From Capsulimonadales bacterium (GTDB lineage Bacteria > Armatimonadota > Armatimonadia > Armatimonadales > Armatimonadaceae), in NCBI GenBank assembly GCA_033762295.1, contig JANRLW010000115.1, positions 1 to 49,333 of the forward strand: a DNA stretch of 49,333 bases. The letters are read 5' to 3'. The translations under genes were made by a program, and so were the position numbers. Shown piece after piece: positions 1-34,906 of the stretch. Numbering within the stretch: the stretch's first letter is position 1; every line of letters begins with the position of its first letter. The notes beneath the pieces are model-generated. The model worked only from the letters and a program-made list of their open reading frames with translations, was not told the DNA's origin and did not search any database.

Positions 1-489
1 TTCGAGAACGCTCTGCGACTGATCCTGCGCTCGGCGCAGTACCCGCTGACCTACACGCGCGAAAGCGGCGTCTATGTGGTCAAGATCCGCGAGATCGCGA
101 CGACGACCAACGCGGCTCCTCCCCCGGCCCCGCCGGAGGACGACCGCAACGACCGGGTGTACCAGCCTCTGGAGACGATCCAGCTGGTGTACGTGGACCC
201 GGCGGACCTGTCGGCGGCGATCGGCCCGATCACCTTCATCCAGTATAACGTCCGTGGTCAGGGCATGGGTGGTGGCATGATGGGCGGTATGGGCGGTGGA
301 ATGATGGGTGGTATGGGTGGCATGATGGGCGGCATGGGTGGCGGAATGATGGGTGGTATGGGCGGCATGATGGGCGGCATGGGCGGTATGGGCGGCGGAA
401 TGATGGGTGGTATGGGCGGTGGAATGATGGGCGGAGGCTTCGGAGGCGGTATGATGGGCGGAGGCTTCGGAGGCGGACGCGGATTTTAA
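1..489 (+). CDS. 5'-truncated STN/secretin-N-like protein with Gly/Met-rich tail
   Basis: Frame +1 is open from base 1 (FENALRLILRSAQYPLTYTRESGVYVV, STN-like), then a Pro linker, IQLVYVDPADL and (GGMM)n; TAA at 487-489. Confidence 0.65.
   Translation, partial: FENALRLILRSAQYPLTYTRESGVYVVKIREIATTTNAAPPPAPPEDDRNDRVYQPLETIQLVYVDPADLSAAIGPITFIQYNVRGQGMGGGMMGGMGGGMMGGMGGMMGGMGGGMMGGMGGMMGGMGGMGGGMMGGMGGGMMGGGFGGGMMGGGFGGGRGF
262..480 (+). repeat. Low-complexity coding repeat (GGMMGGM)n
   Basis: Degenerate ggc/ggt/atg codon repeats. Confidence 0.9.
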
Positions 490-1513: not shown

Positions 1514-2630
1514 TCAGGGTTCCTGACCGGTTGCACTTCTCCAGGCATTGAGGCTGTCATACTCCGTCGCACCCCAGATCGCATGGAAAAACGGTGTCAG
1601 ATAGCAGTTGTCCCGGAAGAGCAGGTTTGGCTGCAGGGCGAGGTCGGGCACTTTGATCATTGTCCGATTGCCCTGAGGAATGAACAGGTTTCTCCGAATG
1701 GTGACATTGACATTCGTCATTCCGTCCTTTACCTGCAGGACGCCAAACGGTCCCTCCGCCGTCGGAAGCGGGTTGTTGCCGAAGATGAAGGTGTTCCCCT
1801 CGACCAGAAGACCGTCCATACCTCCGCCAAAGGTAAACCCGCCGCCATTGCTTATTCCGTCGTTCACGCTGAGATTGTAACGGACTTTGTTGTTTCGCAT
1901 CGGACGGGCCGAGTAAAATTCGTAGACGAGGAAGCCACTGCCAAAGTTATCGTGGCTGTAATTATACTCCATGACGCAGTTGACGCAGCCGCCATCGAGA
2001 TCGAATCCACCGCCGTCGATGGTCATCGACCGGTTTCGATAACTCTCATTGAACCGGATCACGACGTTTTTGGATTCCCAGGCCCAGATACCGACCGGCC
2101 CGCCCCCCTTGTGATCGTTCTTCGCCCCGTTCTCGAAGGCGACACTACATTCGATCATTCCGTTCTCCACATCCGAGAGAACGATTCCGTTGCCGCTGTT
2201 ATTGCCTTTGTTGGCGAAACCGGTGTTTCGATAGGCGCAGCATCCGCCGACGTAGACGTTCTCATGGCTGTAGCCGGGGATGAGCGACTCCGGAAAATCC
2301 GGACCGTAGTAGGAGTTAAAACTTCCGTAGGTGTAAATCCCGCCGTCGCCATTGTCGTGGGCGACGACATTGGTAATCCGAACGTTTTTGAAACCGGTCT
2401 TGATCGCGACATAGTTCTCGTAATCGTAGACATACGCGCCGATCGAGACGCCGTTGACACCGAAACCGCTCACTTCGACGTTGTGGATTTGAACCGTATC
2501 CAGCTTGTTGCCGACGATCGGAATATCGGAAAAGAAGGAGATTCCGTCCTTTAGATTGCCATTATCGCGTCCGACCCCTACCGCATTTAGGTTCTCGATG
2601 CGGATTCCGGCGGTGTCGTAGGCGAAGCGC
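1514..2630 (-). pseudogene. Right-handed parallel beta-helix (pectate lyase-like) protein apparently missing its N-terminus
   Basis: Repeated beta-helix motifs (GNNSGNGIVL, DGGGFDLDGG, YNYSHDNFGSG); no signal peptide; the ORF-track start lies inside prepilin-coding DNA in another frame. Confidence 0.6.
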
Positions 2631-2741
2631 CTGGGCGAAAACCGGGAAAACGATCGCCGCAAGTATGGCAATAATAGCGATTACTATTAAAAGTTCTATC
2701 AGCGTAAAGCCGAACCGCACGGATACACCGCTCCTACGCAT
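2562..2741 (-). pseudogene. Truncated prepilin-type N-terminal cleavage/methylation gene (59 aa)
   Basis: Hand translation: [38 protein letters not shown] then unrelated residues and TAA at 2564-2562; not in the ORF track. Confidence 0.8.
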
Positions 2742-2938
2742 AGTTGGAACGCCCTTTCAACAGGAGATACCGGGATCCCCAGCGGAACCCGGTCGTTATA
2801 ACAGATACGCCCAATCCGAGTTTCGGCGAGATATGTTTGGCTGCTTAGGAAGACAAACCGAAGGAAGAAGAAATTTATTGTTCTTGACGACTTACCATAA
2901 GGTTTACGGGAAGGGCGTGAGCCTCGTGCGTAGGTGCG

Positions 2939-4738
2939 TTAGCCGCCGTGCGGAACGTCCACCGGACGCTCACGGTGCGTCATCACCCAGTCGCCGTTCT
3001 CCGCCAGAGACTCCTGCCCCAGTTCCGTCAGCAGTTGTCGCGCCTCCTCGTACTCGCCGGCGGCAAGACGCCGATGCAAACGATGTTCCGCCAGCACGAA
3101 AAGATGGCCCATCCGTTCATACTGCCTGGCATGCTCGGACAGAGCCCGTTTGTCGACGTAGGTATGCAGCGCCCCGGCCAGGGCGGCGAGCAGGAAAACG
3201 GCGATAATCAGCAGTTTGTGGGCCAGGGGATACCCGTGCATCCAATCCTGAACCGGCGACGGAATCAGTTCCGCCAGCGCCGTGAGCAGAGCGACCACCG
3301 GGCTGGTGGCGATCAGCACCTGAATCGCCTCCTCCAGACGTTCCAGACGGCTCTCCTCCCGATGCGTCGCCCGCTCGAAATACCGCGCCTGATCCGCCAC
3401 CCAGTGTTTCTGAACGTACCCGAGATGCTCCGCCGTTCCGAGCGGCGCGGTTCCCTCAGCGCCGGCATTCTCCGAAAGGTTCCGGATCGCGATCCGTATC
3501 CAGTCCAGTTCCCCCCGCTGCTTCCGCAGGTAGTTGTCGGCGACCGAGGTCCCGATTCCGGCAAGCCTCCAAAAAAACTCCACGCGCAACCCTTCGGCCA
3601 GGGCACGATAGTCCTGATACCGATCCTGCCACGCGCCCCGACTGACCGTCGAATACCAGAGAACCCAGGCGACACCGATCATACCCGGAAAGATCAAGCC
3701 CAGGCGAGCGTTATCCGGTGCTAGTTTCGCCGACAGTTCGAACGCGACGCCCGCCAGAAAGACGATGCCTATCAGGAGTTTCAGCATGCCAAAGGTGCGT
3801 TGCTGATACTCCTGCGCCAGCGTATCGGTCAGGGCGTAAGCCTGGCGAAGCGTCCGCAAGGCCGGGTCCAGAGTGGCGGCCGTTTCGTCGGCGATCAGAT
3901 ACCCGGCATTCCTCCGGAGTTTCGCCGACAGATCGGGGTCCGCCTCCGCCCGCAAGACATTCCGGTTGAACTCCTCCATATTGGCGAAGATGCGATCGAA
4001 CGTCGCCTGGGACTCCGGAATGGCCTCGCCCTCTTCCTCGTCCGTTACCTTCTTTCCGGGATAGTACCGGTTCAGGGTAAACGGCTCCCCTTTCAGTTCA
4101 GGATGGTGACGCCGTGGGGTGACGATATGGTAGACCGGCCCGGTCTCCGGCGGATCGAGCGTGCTGCCGGAAGCGGATTCGGTTTCGAGCAGGGTCGCCA
4201 GCAAACGTTCCGGTATCCCCTCATGCCGGTATTCCAGAATCGTGCCGGTGCCGCCCCCCTCGCCACGGGAAACGCCGTTCCACAGCGCGATCAGGATCTG
4301 GCAGTGACGGACCACGTACGCTCCGACCAGGGCATACTGCTCCGCGCGACACGCCGCGTCACAGACGTTCCCGGCGTCATTTCCGGGCAGATACGGCAGT
4401 TCGAGGGAACGATCGGCCCGCGCCAGTAGCGACCGGAACTCCTCCAGGGACTCGGAAGTCGAAAAATCCTTCTCGTATTCGGCCTGAACCATCGGCAAAG
4501 GCACAATCAACCGGACCCCACGCGCCAGAGCGATCCGGGCGACCAGGCGATCGGCTCCCTCGGCCAGCGGCGAAAGAATATGCAACGGGGTATGGGGATA
4601 TGCGGCTTCCAGTTCGGCGAAAAGGGCGGCGACCTGCGCTTCCAGTTTCGCGGTATCCTCGGGGCGCAGGTCGCGATGTCCGGTGATCCCGACCACCAGC
4701 GGTAAGGGACCATACTTTTTGTCGCCACGGTTTTGCAT
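2939..4738 (-). CDS. SLOG domain fused to two SLATT-like (2TM) domains
   Basis: VGITGHR, SPLAEGADRL, LIALWNG..GGGT (SLOG); two TM pairs with WQDRYQDYRALAEGLR and ELGQESLAENGDW; start refined to ATG at 4738. Confidence 0.8.
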   Translation of the reverse strand: MQNRGDKKYGPLPLVVGITGHRDLRPEDTAKLEAQVAALFAELEAAYPHTPLHILSPLAEGADRLVARIALARGVRLIVPLPMVQAEYEKDFSTSESLEEFRSLLARADRSLELPYLPGNDAGNVCDAACRAEQYALVGAYVVRHCQILIALWNGVSRGEGGGTGTILEYRHEGIPERLLATLLETESASGSTLDPPETGPVYHIVTPRRHHPELKGEPFTLNRYYPGKKVTDEEEGEAIPESQATFDRIFANMEEFNRNVLRAEADPDLSAKLRRNAGYLIADETAATLDPALRTLRQAYALTDTLAQEYQQRTFGMLKLLIGIVFLAGVAFELSAKLAPDNARLGLIFPGMIGVAWVLWYSTVSRGAWQDRYQDYRALAEGLRVEFFWRLAGIGTSVADNYLRKQRGELDWIRIAIRNLSENAGAEGTAPLGTAEHLGYVQKHWVADQARYFERATHREESRLERLEEAIQVLIATSPVVALLTALAELIPSPVQDWMHGYPLAHKLLIIAVFLLAALAGALHTYVDKRALSEHARQYERMGHLFVLAEHRLHRRLAAGEYEEARQLLTELGQESLAENGDWVMTHRERPVDVPHGG

Positions 4739-4769
4739 TTGTCTCGTCCTTTTCCTGTTGTTTCCCGAC

Positions 4770-6509
4770 TTAACGTCGGTAGACCTGGAACCCGGCCAGA
4801 GCAAGCGACTCGGGCAGTTCCCGAATGGTCTGCCGGTTGAACTCCCGGCCCTCCTCCGGCAGTTCCGGCCAGGGCACCAGGTTGGGATTGGTCTTCCGGT
4901 CCGGGTCGCGCGGTCCGAAAGTCCATCCCGCGGCCCGGCGCTCCGCCATCCAGCGCTCATGTTCCATCTGCGCCATCCGCTCGATCTCCTCGGGTGTGAA
5001 GGCGAAGGAGGACGCTTCCCAGTCGGTCAGGGGCGCGATATCGCAACCGATGGACCGCAGTTTGATGCCGATATCGTCCGCCTGGCGGCGATTGGACTCT
5101 TTCCACTCCTCCGAAAGGAACTCCCACGGCACGAGGGTCGGGTTCTGTTGTCCGGTCACGCCCGCCTTGTGCTGGTCGCGCAGGTAACGGGCATGAATGG
5201 CGTGTGCCAGCGCTTCATTAGCCCCGCCGAGAACGAATTCCGGCTGGCAGATCCGCTGCAAGAGGCCGATCGGATGCAGTTTCTCGAACCCGTGTCCGCT
5301 CGCCTGCGTCGATTCCAAAAGCGCTCCGAGGCCGGAATCCTGCGTCATCCGAAGCAGAATCGGTACGGGATGCTGGCGGAACCGGTGCAGGAGCGCCAAT
5401 CCGGCCGAAAGGCTCGCGCCGTCGTTCTCCAGACAGATATAGACGGCGGTGACGGTCACCCGTTTTGCTTCATCGTAGAGAAACGCGCCTCGATGAAACT
5501 CGGCGGAAGGCACGTCCATCACCAGGATTTCCGGATCGCACAGCGAGGCGAACCCCGAATCGTCGGGCCGAAGTTCCTCCAGGAGATCGCCCGTCCGGTC
5601 GATGACCGTGATCCGGAACCGTTCCGTTCCGCGACGGTGCTCGCGCCAGAGCCGAACGGAATGCAAAACGATATTTCGCGCCAATCGGCCTCCGCCGACC
5701 ACCAGGAGATGCGGCGTCCCTTCGACCCGTTCAAACGGCGGGTGCGCGGCCAACATCGCGCGCGCCCCGAGGTCGAAGACGTTGAAAAACTGGAGTCGGA
5801 ACGCGCCGACCGAAGAAATCTCCCAGCGCCGGAGCAAATACCACAGATCGGGATCGACGATATGCGCGGAGCAGGTCAGGGGGTTTCCCTTCCTGTTTTC
5901 GACCAGTTCGCGGGCGCGGGTCGCCACTTCCGCGTTTTTTCCGTCCTCGCCGCAGACGGCAATCAGGTAGCGGGCGCTGCCGACGTTGGCCTTGCGCAGC
6001 ATCTCCGGTTCGGCCGCATCTCCGACCAGCACGATCGCCCCGAGTTCCCGGCAGGCTTCCGACAGAACGTTGGTCTCGTTCTCCTCGATCGCCACGACCG
6101 TCAGGCCACGTTCCCGGAACGCTCGCGTCAGCAGATAGCCCTTCTCCCCCAGTCCGCAGACGACCACATGGTTGCGCAGACGGCGGAGACGCAGTCGCTG
6201 GAGCGAGTCGCTGCGGACAAAGTAGGCGGCAATCGCGGCGGTCGAGACGCCGAGGGTGCCGATCCCGACGAACATCAGGAAGACGGCGACGATCCGCCCG
6301 CCGATCGTCTTCGGGAAAATGTCTCCGTAGCCGATCGTGGTCATCGTTACCAGCGCCCACCAGAGGCTGTCCCCGTACGTCTGCACGGTTTCGTTTCGAC
6401 CGTGTTCGAAGTGGTAGAAGCCGGCGGCGGACAGCAGAGCGATGACAATCACCAGGCTGATGATGGTCAGAAGATAGGTACGCAGGGAGCCTCGACCGGA
6501 TTCATTCAT
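4770..6509 (-). CDS. 2TM K+ channel with two RCK/TrkA-N domains and two C-terminal RyR repeats
   Basis: Filter TMTTIGYGD; Rossmann motifs VVVCGLGEKG and LLVVGGGRLA; RyR-like AHAIHARY..LVPWEFLSEEWKESNR and EHERWMAERRAAGWTFGP.D..RKTNPNLVPW. Confidence 0.88.
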   Translation of the reverse strand: MNESGRGSLRTYLLTIISLVIVIALLSAAGFYHFEHGRNETVQTYGDSLWWALVTMTTIGYGDIFPKTIGGRIVAVFLMFVGIGTLGVSTAAIAAYFVRSDSLQRLRLRRLRNHVVVCGLGEKGYLLTRAFRERGLTVVAIEENETNVLSEACRELGAIVLVGDAAEPEMLRKANVGSARYLIAVCGEDGKNAEVATRARELVENRKGNPLTCSAHIVDPDLWYLLRRWEISSVGAFRLQFFNVFDLGARAMLAAHPPFERVEGTPHLLVVGGGRLARNIVLHSVRLWREHRRGTERFRITVIDRTGDLLEELRPDDSGFASLCDPEILVMDVPSAEFHRGAFLYDEAKRVTVTAVYICLENDGASLSAGLALLHRFRQHPVPILLRMTQDSGLGALLESTQASGHGFEKLHPIGLLQRICQPEFVLGGANEALAHAIHARYLRDQHKAGVTGQQNPTLVPWEFLSEEWKESNRRQADDIGIKLRSIGCDIAPLTDWEASSFAFTPEEIERMAQMEHERWMAERRAAGWTFGPRDPDRKTNPNLVPWPELPEEGREFNRQTIRELPESLALAGFQVYRR

Positions 6510-6545
6510 TGAAAGGCATCATGGCGAATTTTCTCGATCGGTTCT

Positions 6546-6848
6546 TCACGGGCCGGGGGAAATGCCGTTCTTTTCCAGGCGATAGCCGAGAGCGGTGATC
6601 ATCCGTAACGTCTCCATCGCGGTGTTCCGATCGTACTCCTTTTCGATCTCGGACAGTTCTTCGTACGGGATCAGGCAGGGATGCTCCTTCCGCGTATCGT
6701 CCCGTTTCGGACCGTATCGCCAGCCCTCGGACAGCCGCTGCCTGGCCCACACCTCGTGCGTGTTCCGGGCGAGCAGTTCGGTCAGTTCGACCACTTCCGG
6801 CGTCAGAGTGACCCGGGACGTATCCAGGGGTTCGGGTGTATATTCCAT
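6546..6848 (-). CDS. Stand-alone RyR (ryanodine receptor repeat) domain protein
   Basis: YTPEPLDTS..LARNTHEVWARQRLSEGWRYGPKRDD..KEHPCLIPYEELSEIEKEYDR is a canonical RyR repeat. Confidence 0.92.
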   Translation of the reverse strand: MEYTPEPLDTSRVTLTPEVVELTELLARNTHEVWARQRLSEGWRYGPKRDDTRKEHPCLIPYEELSEIEKEYDRNTAMETLRMITALGYRLEKNGISPGP

Positions 6849-6921
6849 CTATCGACTCGCTTTGCCTTTTTCCTCATATCGGCATTCCGGAAGCGGACCC
6901 GAAGGTATGAGACGGTATCCG

Positions 6922-8613
6922 TCATCCTTTAAATCGCAGGTCGATATGGGTTCCGTCACAGAACGGCTTGTTTTGCGACCCGCCGCAACGACAGAGGGTG
7001 ACCCGATTACGGATTTCCGCCGGTTTGCCATCGGCGCGCTCGACCGTCAATCCGCCCATTGCCCAGAGCGGACCGTTGCCGATCACCGAGATCTCCTGCG
7101 GCAGGTGCGGTTCGATTGTCTCGCCGGACGGCAGCAGTTCGTAGGTCAGGGCGCCGCTCGGGCAGCGTTCGATCATCGCGATCACCTGCGATCGCACGGC
7201 GATGTCGTCGGTCTTTTCGGCCATCTCCCAGACATCGGTCACTTTATTTTCGCAGAAGGTGGCGAACGCGCAGAGGGTCCGGTCATGCTTCACAGTCAAC
7301 TGCGTGCCCGGATACGGCACGGCGCGATCGGCACGCGGCGCAGGATCGGCGGTCTCGGTTCCGTCGAAGCGCTCTGCGACATGGCTGCCATCGCAGTACG
7401 GTTTGGCATCCGACTTGCCGCAACGGCAGAGGGCGCAGAACTCGCCGGTATCCACCGGACCCTCGCGCCGCCAGGTAAGCGGTTCGCCCTGTTCAGAAAC
7501 GATCGCGCTCTTGCGCCGGATCGGGATTCCGCCCTCCACAATGTAGGGGCCGTTCGGACGAACGGCGATCCGGGGCGATTTTCGCCGTCCGTAGCCGGGC
7601 GGGACATACTCGAATGTCAGGCCGACCGTCGTTTCTCCGTCCCCCGAGGGCATCCGCACCAGTTCCAGAGCGCGGTATCGTACCTCGTACATCAGGCCGA
7701 CGGCCACCGCCATTCGTCCCGGTTCGCCGTTGAAGCTGCGGTGCATCTCCCGGAGCATCACGGAGTAAGCGCCGTTGAAATCCTCCAGGGCGATCCGTTG
7801 CGGACTGTCGACCGCGAAATCGGCGGTTCGGCCGTTCGCGCGTACCGGGAAAACGGCCTCCCAATCGACCGGGAACGGTTCGCCGGTCGGCCCGGATTCC
7901 GGCGTGTCCCCCTCCTGATAGCTGCGCTCGACCAGCAGTTCGTGGAATCGGAAATAGTGCGACAACTCCTGCCGTTCCGGATCGAACATCGTGCGGTCGC
8001 CGTCCCAGATCGAATGATGGTCCATCCCCTCGCCCTGCTCGACGATCTCTTTCAGGGCGGCGAGAGCCGAGTTCAGGTCGAAGACCGGCAGCACCTTGCC
8101 GCTGCCGTAGTAATGGAAGTTTTTGTCGGTCAGCTGTCGGGCAGGGTTCCCCGTAAAGACGCTCTCCTCGCCCAGTTCGTCACAGAGACGGATCAACCCC
8201 TGTTCGAGCGCCTCGTAAAACTGGCCGATGGTTTCGTAATTATCGTCCTCCGGCGGGGCGTCGGCGGGCGCGGGCATCTCAATGCGCAGAACCGTCTCGA
8301 CGAACTCCTTCGAAAACCGTCCGACCGGGACCTGAAACGCCCGATTACTGTGGGTCATGTAGCAGGGATAGGTCGGAATAAATGCCGGATGATCGAGGCT
8401 GGGCGTGCCGCCGATGGCATTGAGAACGTTGGCTGCCAGCGTCATGTGCAGCATCTCCTCGATGGCGACGCTGAGCAGCACCTTCGCCGCCTCGCGATTC
8501 CGGTCGGGATGCAGAGAATACAGCGCGGTCAGGTACGGCGGGAGGGTCGAATGCTCCAGTTCGATCGCCCACTGGAGATGGGTCCGCAGGTCCTCGATGT
8601 TCCGAATAGCCAT
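6922..8613 (-). CDS. Ferritin-like (VioB C-terminal type) domain fused to CDGSH / divergent 4Fe-4S / CDGSH domains
   Basis: AIELEHSTLPPYL, EEMLHM, EQGEG, SHY..F; LCRCGKSDAKPYCDGSH, CAFATFC..CPSGAL, LCRCGGSQNKPFCDGTH; start refined to ATG 8613. Confidence 0.85.
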   Translation of the reverse strand: MAIRNIEDLRTHLQWAIELEHSTLPPYLTALYSLHPDRNREAAKVLLSVAIEEMLHMTLAANVLNAIGGTPSLDHPAFIPTYPCYMTHSNRAFQVPVGRFSKEFVETVLRIEMPAPADAPPEDDNYETIGQFYEALEQGLIRLCDELGEESVFTGNPARQLTDKNFHYYGSGKVLPVFDLNSALAALKEIVEQGEGMDHHSIWDGDRTMFDPERQELSHYFRFHELLVERSYQEGDTPESGPTGEPFPVDWEAVFPVRANGRTADFAVDSPQRIALEDFNGAYSVMLREMHRSFNGEPGRMAVAVGLMYEVRYRALELVRMPSGDGETTVGLTFEYVPPGYGRRKSPRIAVRPNGPYIVEGGIPIRRKSAIVSEQGEPLTWRREGPVDTGEFCALCRCGKSDAKPYCDGSHVAERFDGTETADPAPRADRAVPYPGTQLTVKHDRTLCAFATFCENKVTDVWEMAEKTDDIAVRSQVIAMIERCPSGALTYELLPSGETIEPHLPQEISVIGNGPLWAMGGLTVERADGKPAEIRNRVTLCRCGGSQNKPFCDGTHIDLRFKG

Positions 8614-8774
8614 CTGGTTTTTCCACCGGCGGCAGGCCGGGTATCCGTCGGTAAGAATTCGTGACGTCCCTATTTTATCGTGATCCGGGGGCGGGTAATC
8701 GGGCGTTTGCGGCGGGTCTTTCAAAAGTCAGGGAGCGGTCGGGCAACCGTTCTCCTCCGTACGACGATCTTCCC

Positions 8775-8803
8775 GCCTCCGCCGCCACAAAAGCGGCGGA
8801 GGC
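8775..8803 (-). terminator. Hairpin downstream of AGE-like gene
   Basis: gcctccgccgc-cacaaaa-gcggcggaggc, 11-bp stem; no strong U-tract. Confidence 0.55.
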
Positions 8804-8821
8804 AGGATACGGACGATCCGT

Positions 8822-10708
8822 TTACACGGGGACGATACGGACTTTGACCTTCATCTCCGGCTTGATCTGCTGCAGTTTGACGCCACCGGCGCGGCGGCGT
8901 TCGAGCAGGTCGGTCGGGTGCAGGGACGCGACATCCGGCAGGGTGACGGTCAGCGCGTCGGCGTCGAAGTTCGTATATTCCTCGCCGTTGATCCACACCG
9001 CGTCCAGCTTGACGCTGCCCGGCGGCAGGATGTCCGGAGAGACGCGCAGGATATTGTCCTTGAACGCGCCCGGCTGCGGCTTGAAGTAGAAGTCCATCGG
9101 CTGCTTCATCACCAGCAGGTTGCTGTAAACGGCGGCAAGGTAGCAGAGTTCCGTCGAGTGGTACGCGCCCATCGAGTGGCTACCCTTGTCGCGTTCGTTG
9201 CCGAGCAGGTACGGCAGACCGTTCGCCAGGACGTTGAAGTAGACCGCGCCGGAATCGGTATCGAGGAACCAGGCGTTGTAGAACGCCGCCGACTCCTCGG
9301 CCAGCTTCTTGTAGGTCGGGTTCTCCAGGCATCCGGCCAGGATGAAGTAGGCGAGAATCCCCTGCTCCTGCTGCCACCAGGCCTTGCGGTCGTGGAACGC
9401 CAGCCGGTGGAACGTCTCTCCCTCGCCCAGTTGTCGCTCCAGCACGTCGTACCAGCCGCCCCGCTGCTTGTCCATCGCGACGGCCGGCATGGTATCGGCC
9501 AGTTTGGTGGCCAGGGCGACATACTTCTCCTTCGGCAGCGCCGAGTTCATCCGCATCAGGTTCCAGGCGATCTTCAGGTCATGACCGCCGACCGCGCGAT
9601 CCTGCTGCCAGCCCCAGGTCTTGTCCGGGCTCCAGTCCTCGTAGAACTTCTCCTGTACGAACGGGCTACCGTCCTTCGCGGGGAACTTCTCCTCGATGAG
9701 GTCGAAGACATACTCCAGGAAGTCCAGATACTTCTGCTCGCCGGTCGCCAGGTAGAGGTTGATCAGGTAGGCCGGAGCATGGTCACCGACCGAGTTCCAG
9801 TTCTTGCGAGCGCAGTTGTGGGCAAGCGATTCCGCCTTCGGGTCGAACGTATCGGTCGTGATGTGCGAGTAGTAGCCGGCCTGCGCGGACTCATCCTTGA
9901 AATACCGGTTGAACAGATTGATCGTCTTCTCGGTATCGGCCAGGATGCTGGGATCGCCGGTGATACGGTAGGTCTGGATCGGGCCGGCGAGAGCGTAGAT
10001 CTGCTCGTACGCCGGAATCGCGCCCCAGTCGTCGCCGAAGAGCGAGCCCAGCACTTCATGGACGCCATCCGGTTGCATATCGAGGGCGTGCAGCCAGTAG
10101 ACGACGCCTTCGTTCTCCTTGTCGCGCTTGCAGATATTGCGCTGCAGGTACTTGGTGCCCTTCTCGGCCGCTTCCAGGAAGCGGTCTTCGCCGGTCATCA
10201 GGTAGGCGGTCGCGAACCCGTAGACGGTGCGGGAGATGGTGTCGGTCTCCTGCAGGGTGGTTCCGAGCTTGCTGCCGTCCAGGTAAAGCTGGGTGCGATA
10301 CTTGGTGTAGTCGATCGGGCCGCCCTCGAACTGCGAGTTGATATAGAAGTCGGCCAGTTCGCGCACCTGGTTGATCCACCAGTCCTGCTTCTCGAATACG
10401 AAATCCCCGGCCTTCTTGCCCGCGAAGACAAGATGCTTCACTTCGAACTTGTAATCGCCGCCTTCCGGGTAGTAAATGCCGTAGGCGAAGACGTAGTTCC
10501 CCACGGACAGCGCCTCGCTCAACTGCCCCATGGCGTCCTGGTAGTTCTCGCCCAGATTGCGGACATATTCGCCGAAGGTGGAGGAGGTCAGTTTGGCCTC
10601 AAATTCCTTATCGCCGGGCGTCTTCAGTCGGAAGGTACCCTGGCTCAGGTCCGCCGCCGTCACATAACCGGCGATGGTATCGGAAAACGTAAAGTCGATC
10701 TGATTCAT
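8822..10708 (-). CDS. AGE family epimerase/isomerase-like (alpha/alpha)6 protein with extra N-terminal domain
   Basis: SRTVYGFATAYLMTG, VGDHAPAY, GHDLKIAWNL, AWWQQEQGILAY, YHSTELCYLAAVY. Confidence 0.8.
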   Translation of the reverse strand: MNQIDFTFSDTIAGYVTAADLSQGTFRLKTPGDKEFEAKLTSSTFGEYVRNLGENYQDAMGQLSEALSVGNYVFAYGIYYPEGGDYKFEVKHLVFAGKKAGDFVFEKQDWWINQVRELADFYINSQFEGGPIDYTKYRTQLYLDGSKLGTTLQETDTISRTVYGFATAYLMTGEDRFLEAAEKGTKYLQRNICKRDKENEGVVYWLHALDMQPDGVHEVLGSLFGDDWGAIPAYEQIYALAGPIQTYRITGDPSILADTEKTINLFNRYFKDESAQAGYYSHITTDTFDPKAESLAHNCARKNWNSVGDHAPAYLINLYLATGEQKYLDFLEYVFDLIEEKFPAKDGSPFVQEKFYEDWSPDKTWGWQQDRAVGGHDLKIAWNLMRMNSALPKEKYVALATKLADTMPAVAMDKQRGGWYDVLERQLGEGETFHRLAFHDRKAWWQQEQGILAYFILAGCLENPTYKKLAEESAAFYNAWFLDTDSGAVYFNVLANGLPYLLGNERDKGSHSMGAYHSTELCYLAAVYSNLLVMKQPMDFYFKPQPGAFKDNILRVSPDILPPGSVKLDAVWINGEEYTNFDADALTVTLPDVASLHPTDLLERRRAGGVKLQQIKPEMKVKVRIVPV

Positions 10709-30085: not shown

Positions 30086-33085
30086 TCATTTCGCCGCCCG
30101 AATGACCTCCGATCCGTCCAGGGCGAACGCAATCGCCTCCTCGGCGGTCATTCTTTCACCCTCGATCAGAGCGGTCGCAAAGCCCGTACGCCCGAGAACC
30201 GCGCGCAGTTCGTCCTCATGGCGGTCGTGACGCGTCCGCAGGTGCGGAGCCACCGGTGCGCCGAGGGTGTCCCGGCGCGCGGTCGCCGCGGCGTAAAGAC
30301 GGGCGGCCCGGTCGTGCTTCTGAGACAGCAACGCCAGGGCGGCAAAGGCCTCCAGCGTCTCGGTCACCATCAGGTTCTGGCCGAGATCGCGGAACAGCAA
30401 AAGCGCGCGAGCCAGGAACTGCCCGGCCCGGGACTCATCGCCCTCATCGATCGCAACCCAGCCCAGACCGTACAAATTGAGCGCCTCGCCGATCCGGTTG
30501 CCAATCTCGCAATGGATGTCCATCGACTCGGTCAGCAGCGAACGGGCGTCCGCCCAATCCTCCCGGTGCCGTGAGAGCAGTCCCAGATAGTGCAGGTTGA
30601 GCGCCTCTCCCATCCGGTTTCCGGTCTCCCGGTTGATCGATAGCGATCGGACCTTGTATTCGCGCGCGCTGTCATAGTCCCCCTGATCCATCATCAGCAT
30701 CCCCAGGCCGTTCAGATTGGCGGCGGTACGATCCCGGCTGCCGATCTCCTCGCTGATCGCGAGAGCCTCCTCGAAAAAGGTACGGGCCTTCTCGTAATTT
30801 CCCTGGTTCCGCTCGATCAGGCCGAGACCGAACAGGTTCGCCGCCTCGCCGGACCGGTCACCGGTCCGGCGATTGATCGCCAGCGCCTGCGCCATGAAGT
30901 TGCGGGCCGCGGGGAAATCGCTCTGGTTCCAGGCGATCAGGCCCAGATTTCCCAGGTTGGATGCCTCCCCGGCCTGCGCCCCGATCTCCCGGTTGATCGC
31001 CAGCGCCTGCTCCTGATAGGACCGGGCCGCCGCGTAATCCCCCTGACCGCGGGTGACCAGTCCGAGACCGTCCAGGTTGTTCGCCTCGCCGAAACGGTTC
31101 CCGATCTGCCGATTGATCGCCAGCGCCTGCTCCATGAAGTCGCGGGCGGCGCCGTAGTCGCCCTGATTCCAGGACAGCATCCCTTCGCCGTTCAGAGCCT
31201 TGGCGCGGGCGGCGGTCGGCGCCTGCGCGCGCGGATGCGCCAGCGCCGTCGCCAGATGCTCTCGCCCCTCGCTCAGGTGACCGTGAATCAGCCAGAACCA
31301 CCACAACGCCCCGGTCAGGCGCAGGGCGACCTCGGCTCCTTCCCCGGTCTCCTGACAATGGGCCAGTGCGGCGCGCAGGTTGTCATGCTCCTGCTCCAGT
31401 CGGTGAAGCCAGTTCCCCTGCTCCGCGCTTCGAAGGTTCGGTTCGGCCTCCTCGGCCAGAGCGACGAACCAGTCGCGGTGCCGGTCCCGAACCTCCTTCT
31501 CCTCCCCGCTTTCGAACAGTTTCTCACGACCGTACTGCCGCACGGTCTCCAGCATCCGGTACCGGGTCTCGCCACGGGTCGTCTCGGCCACGACCAGGGA
31601 TTTATCGACCAGACTTGTCAGAAGGTCCAGCACCTCCCAGTCCTCGACCTCGCCGCCCGCGCCGACCGCTTCGGCGGCCTCCAGGGGCCACCCGCCCGCA
31701 AACAGCGTCAGACGGTGCAACAGGAGGCGCTCCGGATCGGTCAGCAGACCGTAGCTCCAGTCAAACAGCGCGCGAAGCGTCTGCTGTCGGGGAAGCGCGG
31801 TGCGACTGCCCCCGGTGAGCAGTCGGAACAACTGGTCCAGACGCCGGTCAATCTCCTCGACCGTCAGGGATTTGACCCGCGCGGCGGCCAGTTCGATGGC
31901 CAGGGGTATCCCGTCGAGCCGGGCGCAGACAGACGCGACCGCGCGCGCGTTCGCCTCGGTCAGGGCAAAGTTCGGCTGAACGGTCGTGGCCCGCTCGACG
32001 AACAGCCGCACGGCGGCGAACTGCATCAACGTCGTCGGCGTCTGCGGGATACGCGGGTCCGGCAGTGTCAGGGGCGGGACACGGTAGACCTGTTCGCCCT
32101 GAATGTTCATCGCCTCCCGGCTGGTCGCCAGTATTCGCACATGATGACAGGACCGGATCAGCGCGTCCGCCAGACGGGCGCAGGCGGCCAACAGGTGTTC
32201 GCAATTATCGAGCACAATCAGCAACTGCCTGTTGGTCAGCGTGTTCCGCAACGTCTGCAGAATCGGTTCGCCCGGCACCTCGCGAACCCCGCACACACCG
32301 GCCACCGTCGGTGCCACCAGATTCTCGTCACTGAGCGGAGCGAGTTCGACCAGCCAGACGCCGTCGGGAAAGAGTTCCAGAACGTTCGACGCCGCTTTGA
32401 ACGCCAGGCGGGTCTTGCCGCAACCGCCGAGTCCGGCCATGGTCAACAGGCGAACCGTCTGCAGCAGTCGCTCGATATCCTCCAGTTCCTGCTCCCGCCC
32501 GACGAAACTGGTGGCGGACAGCGGCAGGTTATGTTTGGGCGGACCGGTCACCGTCTCGGCGGAGACGGTCGTTTCCTCGTGATCCTCATGACCCGGGAAC
32601 GGCGGCGGCGGCACCACCTCCTTGGTGGTGACGGTCCGAAGTTCGGATACCGTTCCGACCGCCCGTTCCACGCCCTCGTCGGTCGCCGGAAGGATCGGCG
32701 CCAGACGTTCGTAAAGCTCCTGAAGCACGGCGTCGGTCAGGCCGGACACGGCGTTCATCCAGTGAATGGAACTGATGTAGTACTCCAGCGCCGGTCCCGG
32801 CAGCACCTCCTCCAGACGAATGGGAACGACATGCAGTTTTCGCTCGAAGGCGCGCTGGACCTCGCGCCGCACCTGGACCGATTCGTTGGACTGTGCGGAG
32901 AACAGAAAGACAAGCACCTTGCTCGCAGCGATTCCCTCGACGATTGCTTCGCTCCAGTCCTTCCCGGGCATGATGTTGCGCGGCGCGATCCAGCAACGGA
33001 TACCATGGCTCTCGAGGAAGGTGCATACCGCATCGGCGACCGCTTTATCTTTGGACGAGTGACTGATAAAAACGTCGTATCCCAT
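30086..33085 (-). CDS. TIR - STAND ATPase (AfsR/COG3903-like) - TPR protein
   Basis: YDVFISHSSKDK..RREV (TIR with Glu); GLGGCGKT, LLIVLDNCEH, LDGIPLAIELAA; 40-aa TPR repeats; start refined to ATG 33085. Confidence 0.9.
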   Translation of the reverse strand: MGYDVFISHSSKDKAVADAVCTFLESHGIRCWIAPRNIMPGKDWSEAIVEGIAASKVLVFLFSAQSNESVQVRREVQRAFERKLHVVPIRLEEVLPGPALEYYISSIHWMNAVSGLTDAVLQELYERLAPILPATDEGVERAVGTVSELRTVTTKEVVPPPPFPGHEDHEETTVSAETVTGPPKHNLPLSATSFVGREQELEDIERLLQTVRLLTMAGLGGCGKTRLAFKAASNVLELFPDGVWLVELAPLSDENLVAPTVAGVCGVREVPGEPILQTLRNTLTNRQLLIVLDNCEHLLAACARLADALIRSCHHVRILATSREAMNIQGEQVYRVPPLTLPDPRIPQTPTTLMQFAAVRLFVERATTVQPNFALTEANARAVASVCARLDGIPLAIELAAARVKSLTVEEIDRRLDQLFRLLTGGSRTALPRQQTLRALFDWSYGLLTDPERLLLHRLTLFAGGWPLEAAEAVGAGGEVEDWEVLDLLTSLVDKSLVVAETTRGETRYRMLETVRQYGREKLFESGEEKEVRDRHRDWFVALAEEAEPNLRSAEQGNWLHRLEQEHDNLRAALAHCQETGEGAEVALRLTGALWWFWLIHGHLSEGREHLATALAHPRAQAPTAARAKALNGEGMLSWNQGDYGAARDFMEQALAINRQIGNRFGEANNLDGLGLVTRGQGDYAAARSYQEQALAINREIGAQAGEASNLGNLGLIAWNQSDFPAARNFMAQALAINRRTGDRSGEAANLFGLGLIERNQGNYEKARTFFEEALAISEEIGSRDRTAANLNGLGMLMMDQGDYDSAREYKVRSLSINRETGNRMGEALNLHYLGLLSRHREDWADARSLLTESMDIHCEIGNRIGEALNLYGLGWVAIDEGDESRAGQFLARALLLFRDLGQNLMVTETLEAFAALALLSQKHDRAARLYAAATARRDTLGAPVAPHLRTRHDRHEDELRAVLGRTGFATALIEGERMTAEEAIAFALDGSEVIRAAK
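30841..31200 (-). repeat. 120-bp tandem coding repeats (TPR units)
   Basis: ttgatcgccagcgcctgc recurs at 30873, 30993 and 31113. Confidence 0.85.
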
Positions 33086-33309
33086 ATCGTATCCAATATA
33101 CCCTTTACCTGCCTGCCCGTGCATTCGGGCCGGAACATTCGCCGTGCAGGAGTCTTTTCCCCCATCCCTGAATAGACCATTCCGGTACGGCTTTCGCTTT
33201 GATCTCGCAAATGAATTTTTCTGCGGAATTCCTCACAGCGCCGCTCGGCAACGACTTCGAGAAAGACACGGGCAAGATCGGTCATGAGGGATCGCAAACC
33301 GGAGGTGCC

Positions 33310-34113
33310 ATGTCCTTTCCGTTGAATCTGCTGCTCCTGCTCTCCGTCTCCGTTGCGGCGGCGCTCCTTTTGTTGCTGGCGGTTCGCCGCCATCCTCAGG
33401 CCGGACGGCTGCGGGAAACCAACGACATCGCGGGATACTACTTCACGATCCTGGGCGGTCTTTACGGCGTTTTTCTGGGCTTCATGGTCCTGGTGGTCCA
33501 GACTCGCTTCGACCAGGCGGAAACTCTTACCGAACAGGAGGCTACCGCCGCGACCACCCTCTTCGTCATGGCGGGTGGTCTTTCCGAACCCTATCGTAAC
33601 ACGCTCCGTTCCGATTTGACACAGTACGTTTCGGAGGTCGCGGACCGGGAGTGGCCGATTCTGGGCGGAGGCGGATACCAGGCGCCGGAGGCGTTCCAAA
33701 CTTTTCTCCGACTGTACGAAACGGTCGGACGCATGAAGCCACGCGACTCCCGCGAGCAGTCGGTCGTCTCGGAGGCGCTGTCCCGCCTGCACCAGATTCA
33801 CGAAACGCGGCGTCTGAGACTGCTGGCGAATCGAAAAACGCTTCCGTTCGTTTATCAGGGGGTCTTGATCGGGGGGGCGATACTGACGGTGGTATCGACG
33901 GCGCTCTTCGGGGTGGAGCGGTTCGGCCTGCACGCGCTCAAGACCGCGCTGCTGACCGCGTTGATCTGCCTGATGCTTTTCGCGATCCACGAAGTGGACC
34001 GCCCGTTCCGGGGCGAGATACGGGTCTCGGTCGAACCGTTTCGAAGGGCCCGTCTCTTCTTCGGCGAGATTCGGACGCAGGAGGCCGGTCGGTTCGTCCC
34101 AACGGAGGATTGA
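33310..34113 (+). CDS. DUF4239 (bestrophin-like) membrane protein
   Basis: GGAGG RBS before ATG 33310; ILGGLYGVFLGFMV, EA, RRLR, EVDRPFRG..VS.EPF. Confidence 0.75.
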   Translation: MSFPLNLLLLLSVSVAAALLLLLAVRRHPQAGRLRETNDIAGYYFTILGGLYGVFLGFMVLVVQTRFDQAETLTEQEATAATTLFVMAGGLSEPYRNTLRSDLTQYVSEVADREWPILGGGGYQAPEAFQTFLRLYETVGRMKPRDSREQSVVSEALSRLHQIHETRRLRLLANRKTLPFVYQGVLIGGAILTVVSTALFGVERFGLHALKTALLTALICLMLFAIHEVDRPFRGEIRVSVEPFRRARLFFGEIRTQEAGRFVPTED

Positions 34114-34129: not shown

Positions 34130-34648
34130 CTACTGAGCGAGCAGCGCGGCCGGCTCCCCGCTGAGGTTTTTCCGGTACTCCGGCGCGAACCGACCCGCTC
34201 TGAGCAGGAACGTCTGCTCCTCGTCGGGCGAGAAAAGCGCGATCAACCGGTCCAGTTGCGCCGGTTCCGGCCAGATCTCAATCTTCTCCCAGCGTAACAC
34301 CGTCCAGCGGGTCACTCCGAGCGCATCCGCCACCTGCTGCTGCGTCAGCCCCGCGCGCTGCCGCAGGGAGCGCAGCAGAGTGCCATTGTCGGAAACCCGC
34401 TGCCGGGCGATCGCCTGTCGAAGCGCCCGAACGCCGCGCGGTTCATCGAGCAGCTGCCAGACCCGGTTGCTTTCGGTGGGACGGAGATTCAGGGCGTCGA
34501 TGACCGATTTCAATTCGCGCGTGCTGGGTTTTCGTTTGCCGCACTCCCAGCAGGACAGCGTCGACTTGCAGACCTGCGATTTGATCGCCAGAGCCCCCAG
34601 GGACATCCCCCGTCGTTGCCGCAGCGCACGGATCTCTTCTCCGATCAT
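34130..34648 (-). CDS. Transcriptional regulator with two XRE HTH domains
   Basis: IRALRQRRGMSL..KSTLSCWECGKRKP and LRSLRQRAGLTQQQVADALGV.RWTV.RWE; AGGAG RBS. Confidence 0.85.
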   Translation of the reverse strand: MIGEEIRALRQRRGMSLGALAIKSQVCKSTLSCWECGKRKPSTRELKSVIDALNLRPTESNRVWQLLDEPRGVRALRQAIARQRVSDNGTLLRSLRQRAGLTQQQVADALGVTRWTVLRWEKIEIWPEPAQLDRLIALFSPDEEQTFLLRAGRFAPEYRKNLSGEPAALLAQ

Positions 34649-34695
34649 GGCTTCTCTCCTAACGATTGAATGATGGCAGGAAAAACGTCCTGCCG

Positions 34696-34783
34696 TTCTG
34701 ACCACGTTTCGCCCACGTTCGGTCGCGGTACGGTGGGAGAGTATCGCCCTTTGGTGGCGAAAACGTGGTCAGAAACGTGGTCA
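34696..34783. promoter_or_regulatory. Paired heptamer repeats in inverted arrangement (candidate regulator sites)
   Basis: ccacgtt at 34702 and 34713; aacgtgg at 34762 and 34774. Confidence 0.6.
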
Positions 34784-34860
34784 AGAAAAAAATCGACCGA
34801 TTTCCGTCTCAGCCCTCACCAAACACGCTATTATTGCCGGTATGTCCGCTTCCTTAATAC

Positions 34861-34869
34861 TGTTATAAT
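34861..34869 (+). promoter_or_regulatory. Extended -10 promoter
   Basis: TGtTATAAT ending 38 bp before ATG 34907. Confidence 0.6.
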
Positions 34870-34906
34870 AACTGACAGGCGACTCCCACCAGGTATTCCG
34901 ATATAT

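Follow-up and report, generated by a model that had tools for sequence, protein, structure and literature searches.

We analyzed three genes of a Capsulimonadales bacterium (phylum Armatimonadota; assembly GCA_033762295.1) that lie within a stretch of 49,333 nucleotides, contig JANRLW010000115.1, which we call the window. The genes are arranged head to tail on the minus strand between positions 2,939 and 6,848. They encode a stand-alone RyR domain (the solo RyR), a potassium channel, and a protein that joins a SLOG domain to a SLATT-like membrane module (SLOG-SLATT). We propose, with a probability of roughly 0.55, that this cassette is the receptor and effector arm of a Thoeris-like pathway that signals with a derivative of nicotinamide adenine dinucleotide (NAD); perhaps about two thirds of that 0.55 falls to an anti-phage role. 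Because the cassettes of related microbes sit beside TIR enzymes, the signal to which this one responds is probably derived from NAD.

Domains of the three proteins

The solo RyR consists of one complete RyR (R12-type) domain: it matches the RyR family of Pfam (PF02026) over the full profile (positions 1-91 of 91) with 124.9 bits, where the cut-off is 27.4. It is about 65% identical to two Bacteroides thetaiotaomicron crystal chains described as "putative ryanodine receptor" (3nrt and 6uag), and all four repeats of animal RyR2 align with it, repeat 1 with an i-E value of 1.7e-21. In two preprints of 2026, RyR-domain proteins from phages are reported to bind the cyclic ADP-ribose (cADPR) isomers 3'cADPR and 2'cADPR as well as cADPR, or to cleave the first two (PMC13232231; 10.64898/2026.06.04.730250). 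In the phage protein RyDEP, H75 and D117 are described as a catalytic dyad, W78 as stacking on the adenine, and H100 as contacting the phosphates; of eight homologues tested, six bound these signals but did not cleave them, and two that were characterized are nanomolar sponges (PMC13232231). RyR Tad, also from phage, is described as a dimer that binds 3'cADPR (dissociation constant, KD, of 43 nM), 2'cADPR, and cADPR, and its binding needs H129/W132, H154/K147, and K170/D171 (bioRxiv 10.64898/2026.06.04.730250). The solo RyR has H31, W34, H56, and D73, at +3, +25, and +42 from the first histidine, which is the same printed spacing as that of the ligand or catalytic residues of RyDEP and RyR Tad. 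The H-W-H-D set recurs in 14 of the 15 distinct sequences of solo RyR proteins, and most of the four positions do not vary. Because the full set is present with the spacing of the phage proteins, we predict that the solo RyR is a homodimeric, high-affinity binder or a glycosidase of signals derived from ADP-ribose (ADPR).

The second protein is a channel with two transmembrane (TM) segments, at residues 13-31 and 73-91, which flank a selectivity filter (T57-T58-I59-G60-Y61-G62-D63). This agrees with the T-[VI]-G-Y-G-D filter of RCK-gated potassium channels of the GsuK/MthK type, which likewise have their RCK domain or domains on the cytoplasmic side after the pore. Across nine orthologues (47-57% identity), position 59 of the filter is I or V and the other six positions are invariant. 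Pfam identifies Ion_trans_2 (68.3 bits), TrkA_N (67.5 bits), and RyR (62.2 bits; cut-off 27.4) in this protein; it sees one RCK domain, with no Pfam match for RCK2. In an AlphaFold 2 (AF2) model built from a 23-row alignment (predicted local distance difference test, pLDDT, of 85.1), residues 113-429 align with TrkA (4j9u_G; Z 22.1, 268 residues aligned) and with KtrA (Z 21.9), and residues 8-429 align with GsuK (4gx5_A; Z 20.8), which has two TM segments and two RCK domains. Because the proteins that align with residues 113-429 of the model have RCK domains in tandem, we regard the presence of two RCK domains as confirmed by the predicted structure.

At the C terminus of the channel, residues 430-579 form two helix-helix-strand units in the AF2 model. 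The second unit, repeat B (residues ~506-578), is a clear RyR repeat, whereas repeat A (residues ~430-493) is degenerate, with a weak match at 454-480 to our own hidden Markov model (HMM). At the four ligand positions, repeat B of the window's channel has H517, W520, N541, and N558 (H-W-N-N). This is the usual state in fused C-terminal repeats: among 24 of them, we found HWNN in 16, HWHD in 5, HWHN in 2, and HWNQ in 1. Since the histidine and the tryptophan are kept and asparagine occupies the two further pocket positions, the RyR tandem seems more likely to be a ligand sensor, which would bind its ligand without cleaving it.

SLOG and SLATT were reportedly defined by Burroughs et al. in 2015 (NAR 43:10633). 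In an AF2 model of the SLOG-SLATT protein (pLDDT 90.3; predicted template modeling score, pTM, of 0.90), the best fold match of the N-terminal domain was YpsA (2nx2; Z 15.2, root mean square deviation [rmsd] of 2.9 Å over 162 residues; Foldseek E of 6.1e-5). Further matches were DprA (Z about 10-10.7), ShosA (Z 10.0), LOG (Z 8-8.7), and the Moco-carrier (MCP; within Z 8-10.7), and TRPM2, TRPM4, and TRPM8 were among the Foldseek matches; all the fold matches noted are SLOG-superfamily folds. G61-x-D63 is invariant in 39 aligned sequences (the query and 38 homologues), and G20-H21-R22 are also invariant columns of the alignment. GxD/E is reported to mark the YpsA clade and to serve in substrate binding (PMC6459960). 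When run on the SLOG-SLATT protein alone, Pfam reports just YAcAr in the SLOG region, at E of 0.042; across the 39 homologues, the SLOG-family matches are YAcAr in 17 and DprA in 3. Given the modeled fold, we consider it established that this is a SLOG domain; by fold and motif it is YpsA-like. The family is large: more than 2174 of 8000 scored candidates were homologues at E <= 0.001.

The rest of the SLOG-SLATT protein has four TM segments (315-333, ~347-367, 474-492, and 510-528) and the layout of SLATT-type proteins, namely a TM pair before a cytoplasmic helical region, fused to or beside a SLOG, SMODS, or TIR component; here SLOG is fused at the N terminus. The first pair matches DUF4231 (E of 0.006) and NCBIfam's SLATT_3 (E of 0.001), both below threshold. 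Sub-threshold matches also occur among the 39 homologues (DUF4231 in 24, SLATT_3 in 22, and SLATT_1 in 12), with best E values of 3.6e-6 to 1e-5. The label of SLATT-like for the four-TM module, from these sub-threshold matches, is therefore reasonable. When we compared the two TM halves of the family with hhalign, the probability was 7%, so no internal duplication is detectable, and when PDB sequences were searched with a profile from the SLOG-SLATT alignment, just chance coiled-coil matches came up (E of 0.18 or worse).

All of our gene calls are based on open reading frames (ORFs). The ORF of the third gene is open to 4960, which would give a 190-nucleotide overlap with the channel gene, and we rejected 4960 as the start. 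Because homologues begin near the ATG at 4738, and because the longer ORF overlaps the channel gene, 4738 is the likely start. The intergenic gaps are then 36 bp (solo RyR to channel) and 31 bp (channel to SLOG-SLATT). An earlier, sequence-only reading of this DNA had described three co-oriented genes with gaps of about 30-40 bp, a stand-alone RyR repeat, a channel with two TM segments, a TIGYGD filter, and two RCK domains, and an N-terminal SLOG domain, and all of these descriptions held. Its claim of two RyR repeats in the channel holds for repeat B but less so for the degenerate repeat A. Similarly, of the two SLATT-like TM pairs that it described, the four TM helices and a first pair resembling DUF4231 and SLATT_3 were found, but the matches are below the cut-offs and the second pair can barely be assigned.

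Table 1. Positions of the cassette genes, their domains, and the candidate TIR gene in the window
Feature	Position	Strand	Basis
Solo RyR (R12-type) protein, 100 amino acids (aa)	6546..6848	-	Pfam RyR
Potassium channel (two TM segments, RCK1, RCK2, tandem RyR), 579 aa	4770..6509	-	Pfam and AF2 fold
Selectivity filter TTIGYGD (aa 57-63)	6321..6341	-	Translation and orthologues
RCK1 (aa ~113-260), glycine motif GLGEKG	5730..6173	-	Pfam TrkA_N at 115-230; KTN 1lss_A, Z 18.2, rmsd 2.0
RCK2 (aa ~265-429)	5223..5717	-	Fold alignment with TrkA, KtrA, and GsuK
Tandem RyR repeats A and B (aa ~430-579)	4773..5222	-	Pfam RyR at 509-576; own HMM at 454-480
SLOG (YpsA-like) and four-TM SLATT-like protein, 599 aa	2939..4738	-	AF2 fold and sub-threshold profiles
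SLOG domain (aa 12-223)	4070..4705	-	Fold match to YpsA 2nx2 and invariant motifs
First TM pair (aa ~315-367), SLATT_3/DUF4231-like	3638..3796	-	Hydrophobic at 315-333; sub-threshold matches at 300-387
Second TM pair (aa 474-528), weakly SLATT_1-like	3155..3319	-	Hydrophobic at 474-492 and 510-528
TIR, P-loop, and TPR protein outside the operon, 1012 aa	30089..33124	-	Pfam TIR_2 (85.9 bits) and TPRs

Gene linkage and TIR genes in related cassettes

The genome that contains the window (5.16 Mb in 132 contigs) has exactly two RyR genes, both in this operon, and its sole SLOG-SLATT gene adjoins them. We found a full-length orthologue of the channel in 2 of 40 relatives from the same family and order, both of one genus. 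In both relatives the solo RyR is upstream of the channel. In one (G003, which is also locus L002 below), SLOG-SLATT is downstream of the channel; in the other (G014), the first 171 amino acids of SLOG-SLATT are downstream at the end of the contig and the rest is on another contig. Across 401 sampled genomes from the phylum, 21 have a homologue of the channel at E <= 1e-60, 12 have a full-length channel (including the window's genome and one split copy), and SLOG-SLATT (E <= 1e-40) is present in 18. Every one of the 12 genomes that have a full-length channel contains SLOG-SLATT as well. In one further genome, G163, SLOG-SLATT matches over a long stretch (profile positions 11-490) and the channel has no match at E <= 1e-60.

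We fetched the contexts of nine full-length channels from the phylum. SLOG-SLATT is directly downstream of the channel in all eight of those whose contig continues; in the ninth, the contig stops 405 bp past the channel. In a separate scan of genome contigs, which yielded 79 SLOG-SLATT loci, the channel is immediately upstream of SLOG-SLATT in 8; five loci are common to the fetched contexts and the scan. These loci come from related contigs of metagenome-assembled genomes (MAGs), and many of them are truncated. The phylum-wide search and the fetched contexts replaced a context test in metagenomes that had failed: searching metagenome contigs with the channel alignment gave generic potassium channels, with matches limited to residues 1 to ~234, and was useless as a reciprocal test. 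Overall, the linkage of the three genes is not due to chance. Because the channel and SLOG-SLATT co-occur and adjoin each other, yet are found in few genomes, the pair is a conserved but patchily distributed accessory unit.

We searched the flanks of the 79 loci with profiles for TIR, RyR, SLOG, and Tll0287/HAMP that were built in this analysis and spot-checked with Pfam. The TIR profile was built from five Pfam-verified seeds; of 23 flagged proteins that we sent to Pfam (the 5 seeds and 18 more), at least 22 have TIR_2 above the cut-off. There are 37 TIR ORFs within 8 kb of SLOG-SLATT, at 32 of the 79 loci. Twenty-one of them, in 21 loci, are within 500 bp, and 13 of these 21 are on the same strand as SLOG-SLATT. 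If TIR ORFs were spread evenly over the 952 kb of flanking sequence, about 2.9 would be expected so close (binomial p of 2e-14, which is overstated, as the loci are related). Put differently, the flanks contain about one TIR ORF per 26 kb, versus five TIR_2 genes in the 5.16-Mb genome of the window. The TIR partners are of many kinds: short proteins (220-320 amino acids), TIR-WD40, TIR-TPR, TIR-NB-ARC-TPR, TIR-kinase, SIR2-TIR, and TIR-STING (at L025). The glutamate after the SxxS motif, which we take to be the catalytic one, is kept in at least 80% of 29 TIR sequences.

In a FastTree phylogeny of 75 SLOG-SLATT proteins (unrooted), the window's protein pairs with that of L002 (support of 100), and a single supported clade, of 10 rows, comprises the other loci linked to the channel. 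The TIR-linked rows are scattered across the whole tree, so the data fit an old connection to TIR with repeated loss or relocation.

Three arrangements illustrate where the TIR gene lies. At L002, which is the closest relative with the operon and belongs to the same family, the order is TIR-WD40 (1122 amino acids), solo RyR, channel, and SLOG-SLATT. In Abditibacteria-type loci, the order is solo RyR (when present), TIR (~310 amino acids), a Tll0287-like/HAMP protein, channel, and SLOG-SLATT; among nine such loci, Tll0287/HAMP is present in nine, TIR in seven, and the solo RyR in four, and both of the TIR-less loci end at a contig border. In Proteobacteria, the order is Tll0287/HAMP, TIR, and SLOG-SLATT. 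The Tll0287-like/HAMP gene is a fixed member of the cassette in 9 of the 79 loci (in Abditibacteria and Proteobacteria), and its product may set the trigger of the TIR. This protein, of ~290 amino acids, combines a Tll0287-like domain (a PAS-like, heme-type sensor) with HAMP and has no output domain (L048:4960-5883, L053:5206-6075, L072:6410-7276, and L077:6407-7273).

The other modules are linked to TIR as well. We counted 15 distinct loci with a solo RyR: 9 have a co-oriented TIR_2 gene no more than 300 bp away, and a tenth (L025) has a TIR-STING protein as the neighbor. Pore-less paralogues of the channel, which have an N-terminal region, two RCK domains, and RyR, were examined at 11 loci, with TIR nearby at 4, the same SLOG domain at 4, and a solo RyR at 3. 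Among these, at L198 (9982-13365), a single protein of 1128 amino acids fuses this SLOG domain to RCK-RyR. Stand-alone SLOG genes (239-253 amino acids) lie between TIR-TPR and RyR genes at L196 (3621-4337) and L197 (10267-11025); Pfam names nothing in these two.

These neighborhoods bear on two other accounts of the solo RyR. First, it might be a structural partner of the channel, serving as an accessory subunit or adaptor by docking to the RyR tandem or the RCK ring, rather than a free sponge or enzyme. The solo RyR is directly upstream of the channel in the window, in L002, and in G014, and RyR-type domains are reported to pair via helices alpha1 and alpha4, so a hetero-pair is conceivable (PMC13232231). 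However, two genes separate the solo RyR from the channel in Abditibacteria, where it adjoins TIR, and it is absent from five of the nine Abditibacteria-type loci (two flanks are cut by contig ends). It is also present at loci without a full-length pore channel (L025, L029, L045, and L046), it lies close to TIR at most of its loci (the 9 of 15 above), and it keeps the full set of ligand or catalytic residues, while the channel's own two repeats can pair with each other. A complex prediction for the solo RyR with channel residues 425-579 gave a score of 0.00, which counts for neither reading. Taken together, a structural role seems quite unlikely.

Second, the solo RyR might be a captured phage anti-Thoeris gene that sits beside unrelated membrane genes and shares no function with them. 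The characterized RyR-domain proteins of similar size are indeed phage counter-defense proteins, but there are no phage genes among the window ORFs that we scanned, both RyR genes of the genome sit in the operon, and the gene order recurs within the family (L002 and G014) and across phyla. Because the gene order is conserved, this idea is close to refuted.

A putative NAD-derived signal

The domain anatomy and the conserved linkage are observations, and from them we infer the following mechanism. A TIR enzyme would convert NAD+ to a messenger of the cyclic ADP-ribose type; in relatives this enzyme is encoded within the cassette, while here it would be unlinked (the candidate is the gene at 30089-33124). 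The potassium channel would read the messenger via its C-terminal RyR tandem, which is mounted on the tandem-RCK gating module, and its pore would open. The SLOG-SLATT protein would read the messenger via its YpsA-like SLOG domain, and its four-TM module would breach or permeabilize the membrane. Loss of K+ and depolarization would lead to growth arrest or death. As a homodimeric sponge or glycosidase of the same messenger, the solo RyR would set the threshold of the response or end it.

Because the RyR repeats of the channel are more likely to be a ligand sensor, the layout is more likely to be two self-sensing effectors than one sensor with two effectors. The sequence-only reading had proposed the latter and gave the channel's RyR repeats no role of their own; in this respect it is not favored, as these repeats are the probable sensor of the channel. 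Its broader proposal of membrane effectors centered on nucleotides does fit the evidence, and the three genes do recur together in other genomes; their failure to co-occur had been set beforehand as grounds to abandon the idea. It had also suggested that the solo RyR is an adaptor or an inhibitor. An inhibitor is compatible with the phage RyR sponges and glycosidases; the adaptor is the structural role that we consider quite unlikely. Missing from that interpretation is the signal generator, that is, the TIR genes that flank 32 of the 79 loci. Thus, its observations are confirmed and its interpretation is partly supported.

Several known systems share parts of the proposed mechanism. In type I Thoeris, ThsB (a TIR protein) acts with ThsA, a SIR2-SLOG protein, and the signal is 3'cADPR. 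The likeness is that a SLOG domain receives the TIR product, as we propose here, but the window's effector is a membrane module instead of SIR2 and its SLOG domain is closest to those of YpsA and DprA. ThsA was not among the 50 fold matches listed for the SLOG domain, which does not exclude a likeness to ThsA. YpsA itself (Bacillus subtilis; PDB 2nx2) differs from the window's protein in being a soluble modulator of cell division without a membrane module.

Two newer types of Thoeris are described as validated in a preprint of December 2025 (bioRxiv 10.64898/2025.12.03.692087): type VII, with a TIR protein (ThsB), a SLATT effector (ThsH), and cADPR as the signal, and type X, from Bacillus sp. 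BH32, with a TIR protein, an ion-channel effector (ThsK), and a signal that is unknown. The same source (10.64898/2025.12.03.692087) counts 84 TIR genes that neighbor SLATT genes and 19 that neighbor ion-channel genes in one cluster, and it describes ThsH and ThsI as sometimes sharing one operon, so that one TIR operon has two effectors. Like type VII, the cassette would couple a SLATT-type membrane effector to TIR, with a predicted oligomeric breach of the membrane upon nucleotide binding. ThsH, which we compared by its description, is presented with SLATT and inter-protomer pockets and without mention of SLOG, whereas the window's protein has a YpsA-like SLOG domain before its four TM helices and has no adjacent TIR. 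As in type X, an ion-channel effector adjoins TIR in relatives of the cassette; the window's channel differs from ThsK, as that protein appears in the text of the preprint, in having a second effector and a solo RyR as its partners. The available text of the preprint (10.64898/2025.12.03.692087) contains no mention of RyR, TrkA, or HAMP. The sequence-only reading knew of no characterized system with this composition; given the validated pairs of TIR with SLATT and of TIR with an ion channel, this holds only with a qualification. Our literature search found no paper on host-encoded channels with RyR domains or on a host solo RyR in TIR operons, although Burroughs et al. 2015 may note some associations.

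For the solo RyR, the nearest counterparts are RyDEP and RyR Tad, which also have one R12-type RyR domain of ~100 amino acids with His, Trp, His, and Asp at identical spacing. These phage proteins are described as dimers that bind 2'cADPR, 3'cADPR, and cADPR with nanomolar to submicromolar affinity (PMC13232231; 10.64898/2026.06.04.730250). They are viral counter-defense proteins, whereas the solo RyR is encoded by the host in a conserved operon, alongside TIR, channel, and SLOG genes in relatives, and would regulate the host's own signal. GsuK from Geobacter (PDB 4gx0, 4gx1, 4gx2, and 4gx5) resembles the channel in having a pore of two TM segments and tandem RCK domains that form a nucleotide-binding gating module, but it lacks RyR repeats and is not known to be linked to a TIR or SLOG gene. 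Animal ryanodine receptors (with R12) and TRPM channels (with an N-terminal SLOG-like domain) are likewise cation channels joined to the same nucleotide-pocket domains. However, their pores are different (Ca2+ or nonselective, versus K+ here), the window's proteins are much smaller, and direct descent is unsupported.

The window's operon contains neither a TIR gene nor a Tll0287/HAMP gene. In Thoeris-type systems the TIR gene shares an operon with its effector or adjoins it, as it does in relatives of the cassette (within 500 bp of SLOG-SLATT at 21 of 79 loci, and upstream of the solo RyR at L002), but this is not the case here. The TIR domain encoded by the candidate TIR gene in the window (Table 1) shares 52% identity with the TIR from the L048 cassette. 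When the genome's five TIR_2 genes were scored with a profile of 13 short TIRs of the cassette type, the candidate ranked first, with 150.8 bits; a second TIR gene, on contig C78, has 127.3 bits. We also considered whether the candidate is the orthologue of the TIR-WD40 protein of L002 and rejected this, as the two are 30% identical and in the TIR domain only. A bestrophin-like gene (33199-34110) is divergent from the TIR gene, and its product is 35% identical to a bestrophin-like protein of L048; at L048 and L052, the bestrophin-like gene adjoins the end of the cassette that has the solo RyR and TIR. This pair in the window looks like the same neighborhood, rearranged. The window and these two Abditibacteria loci also share GlgX and epimerase-like genes upstream; where the window has the ferritin-like/CDGSH gene (described below) and then the solo RyR before the channel, L048 and L052 have the bestrophin-like gene, solo RyR, TIR, and Tll0287/HAMP. 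It is plausible, if tentative, that the product of 30089-33124 is a signal generator that acts in trans.

Other observations weigh against an effector arm driven by TIR. The nearest TIR ORF in the window is 23,241 bp from the solo RyR. TIRs that are fused to STAND-type or P-loop-TPR modules are often terminal NADases rather than signallers, and STAND-type TIR fusions were set aside in the 2025 preprint (10.64898/2025.12.03.692087). The SLATT-like matches of the window's protein are below the cut-offs (DUF4231, 17.4 bits versus 24.7; NCBIfam SLATT_3, 19.1 versus 45), and SLATT_1 weakly matches 3 of 9 homologue C-terminal halves and not the window's own, so the second TM pair is barely assignable. 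The mapping of solo RyR residues to RyDEP and RyR Tad was made from printed residue spacing, not from a sequence alignment. Neither TIR nor RyR is found in the flanks of 42 of the 79 SLOG-SLATT loci, some of which have short flanks, and in a clade of 25 rows (22 from Bacteroidota or Ignavibacteriota), just 3 have TIR in their flanks. In seven loci of Kapaibacterium-type MAGs (L008, L010, L011, L013, L059, L071, and L076), SLOG-SLATT directly follows an FBPase gene, with a dUTPase gene just upstream in six of them (not L010); none of the seven has TIR or RyR adjacent to SLOG-SLATT, and at L013 a TIR is 3.4 kb away. This arrangement is a conserved, housekeeping-like synteny. None of the three cassette proteins matches PADLOC-DB 2.0.0, and PADLOC recognized no defense system among 34 other ORFs of the window. 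On those 34 ORFs it gave partial TIR/TPR and helix-turn-helix (HTH) matches and two weak matches to candidate models (GlgB-like and desaturase-like); the PADLOC library is dated 2023, which is before Thoeris types V-XI. In relatives, the gene for the Tll0287-like/HAMP sensor is a hint of a cue other than phage, and the shared GlgX and epimerase-like neighbors look like a stable chromosomal site rather than a mobile island; together, the sensor and the stable neighborhood point to a physiological cue. Finally, RCK domains bind common nucleotides (as in GsuK with NAD or ADP), and an RyR R12 domain is reported to bind ATP, another common nucleotide (PMC13232231; 10.64898/2026.06.04.730250); the ligand may therefore be something other than what a TIR makes.

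Many of these points suit a different explanation, in which the cassette is for housekeeping or stress signaling: the channel and SLOG-SLATT would read adenine nucleotides, NAD(H), or a TIR messenger made in response to an envelope or redox cue, and they would adjust K+, membrane potential, or dormancy. This would account for the absence of recognized defense genes around the operon, the recurrence of GlgX and epimerase-like neighbors beside the cassette in another family, and the periplasmic Tll0287-like sensor with HAMP that is fixed in 9 of 79 cassettes. It would also account for most rows of the clade dominated by Bacteroidota and Ignavibacteriota being TIR-less in their flanks, several by metabolic genes, and for the fact that GsuK, the closest solved channel architecture, was deposited with NAD and with ADP bound. 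On the other hand, the spread of the cassette is patchy, with a full-length channel in 2 of 40 relatives and a homologue (E <= 1e-60) in 21 of 401 genomes of the phylum. The neighboring TIRs are of the types found in conflict systems (TIR-WD40, TIR-NB-ARC-TPR, TIR-STING, and SIR2-TIR), and pairs of TIR with SLATT and of TIR with a channel are reported to protect against phage (10.64898/2025.12.03.692087). Conflict systems are suggested by the diversity of the TIR-STAND, WD40, and TPR partners and by the patchy distribution, and we consider the housekeeping explanation unlikely, although it deserves some weight.

In its most specific form, the Thoeris-like proposal describes a bacterial K+ channel that is gated, via an R12-type RyR, by a cADPR messenger made by TIR, and that is paired with a SLATT pore gated by SLOG and with a host RyR sponge or glycosidase. 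We hold this form tentatively, at somewhat less than an even chance. If it is correct, the signaling from cADPR to RyR and from ADPR to TRPM channels in animals would have a counterpart in prokaryotes, which may even be where it evolved from. A cell would then, for the first time, be seen to regulate its own immune messenger with an RyR-domain protein, as opposed to evasion by a phage, and the cassette would add an ion channel sensed by RyR and a host-encoded signal buffer to the TIR (Thoeris-type) repertoire. How R12 domains read cADPR-type nucleotides is still an open question for animal ryanodine receptors; if the RyR tandem is the sensor of this channel, it would be a small and tractable bacterial model. 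More broadly, the cassette links TIR, SLOG, and RyR modules, all of which are present in eukaryotic immune and Ca2+ signaling. The window, which has no TIR in the operon, raises the question of whether effector cassettes can be driven in trans by unlinked TIR-STAND proteins.

Other neighbors and related arrangements

Upstream of the solo RyR, on the same strand, is a gene (6922-8724, minus strand) for a protein of 600 amino acids in which a ferritin-like domain is joined to a divergent 4Fe-4S mono-cluster domain (Fer4_19) and two CDGSH iron-sulfur domains. Because it is on the same strand and ends just 73 bp from the solo RyR, it may be co-transcribed with it. On the other side of the cassette, the next gene begins 267 bp past SLOG-SLATT. 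A scan of 2500-9000 found no promoter-like sites, and its seven terminator-like sites (versus 5.4 in shuffled sequences) are uninformative. At the start of the window (1-489, plus strand) is a partial ORF with a tail of ~75 residues that is nearly all Gly and Met (GMGGGMMGG... repeats) and has no Pfam match. Just past the window's TIR and bestrophin-like genes are SARP/STAND-like regulators: an HTH gene (34133-34705, minus strand) that adjoins the BTAD genes at 34670-36355 (BTAD with an AAA-type ATPase) and 40212-41075 (BTAD alone).

Some of the related loci have unusual compositions. In a Pelotomaculum MAG (L025:1015-4369), one strand encodes a solo RyR, a TIR-STING protein (a CAP12/Pycsar-type TIR with prokaryotic STING), and SLOG-SLATT, so this locus combines cyclic-dinucleotide and TIR modules. 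At L031 (2546-4648), a 701-aa AAA+ ATPase with a C-terminal RyR domain is encoded directly downstream of SLOG-SLATT, and at L200 (10724-13318), an 865-aa protein with the same SLOG domain and an AAA region adjoins an RCK-RyR protein. A locus labeled as a Bifidobacterium breve MAG (L069) has the pair of channel and SLOG-SLATT genes, a TIR-kinase gene, and the GlgX and epimerase-like neighbors seen in Armatimonadota and Abditibacteria; the label of this bin is probably wrong. In two loci from Ignavibacteriota (L017:9867-10742 and L026:9810-10673), a gene for a potassium channel of the Ion_trans type, with six TM segments and no RyR, begins 31 bp past SLOG-SLATT. The SLOG-SLATT family is here paired with a cation channel a second time, independently.

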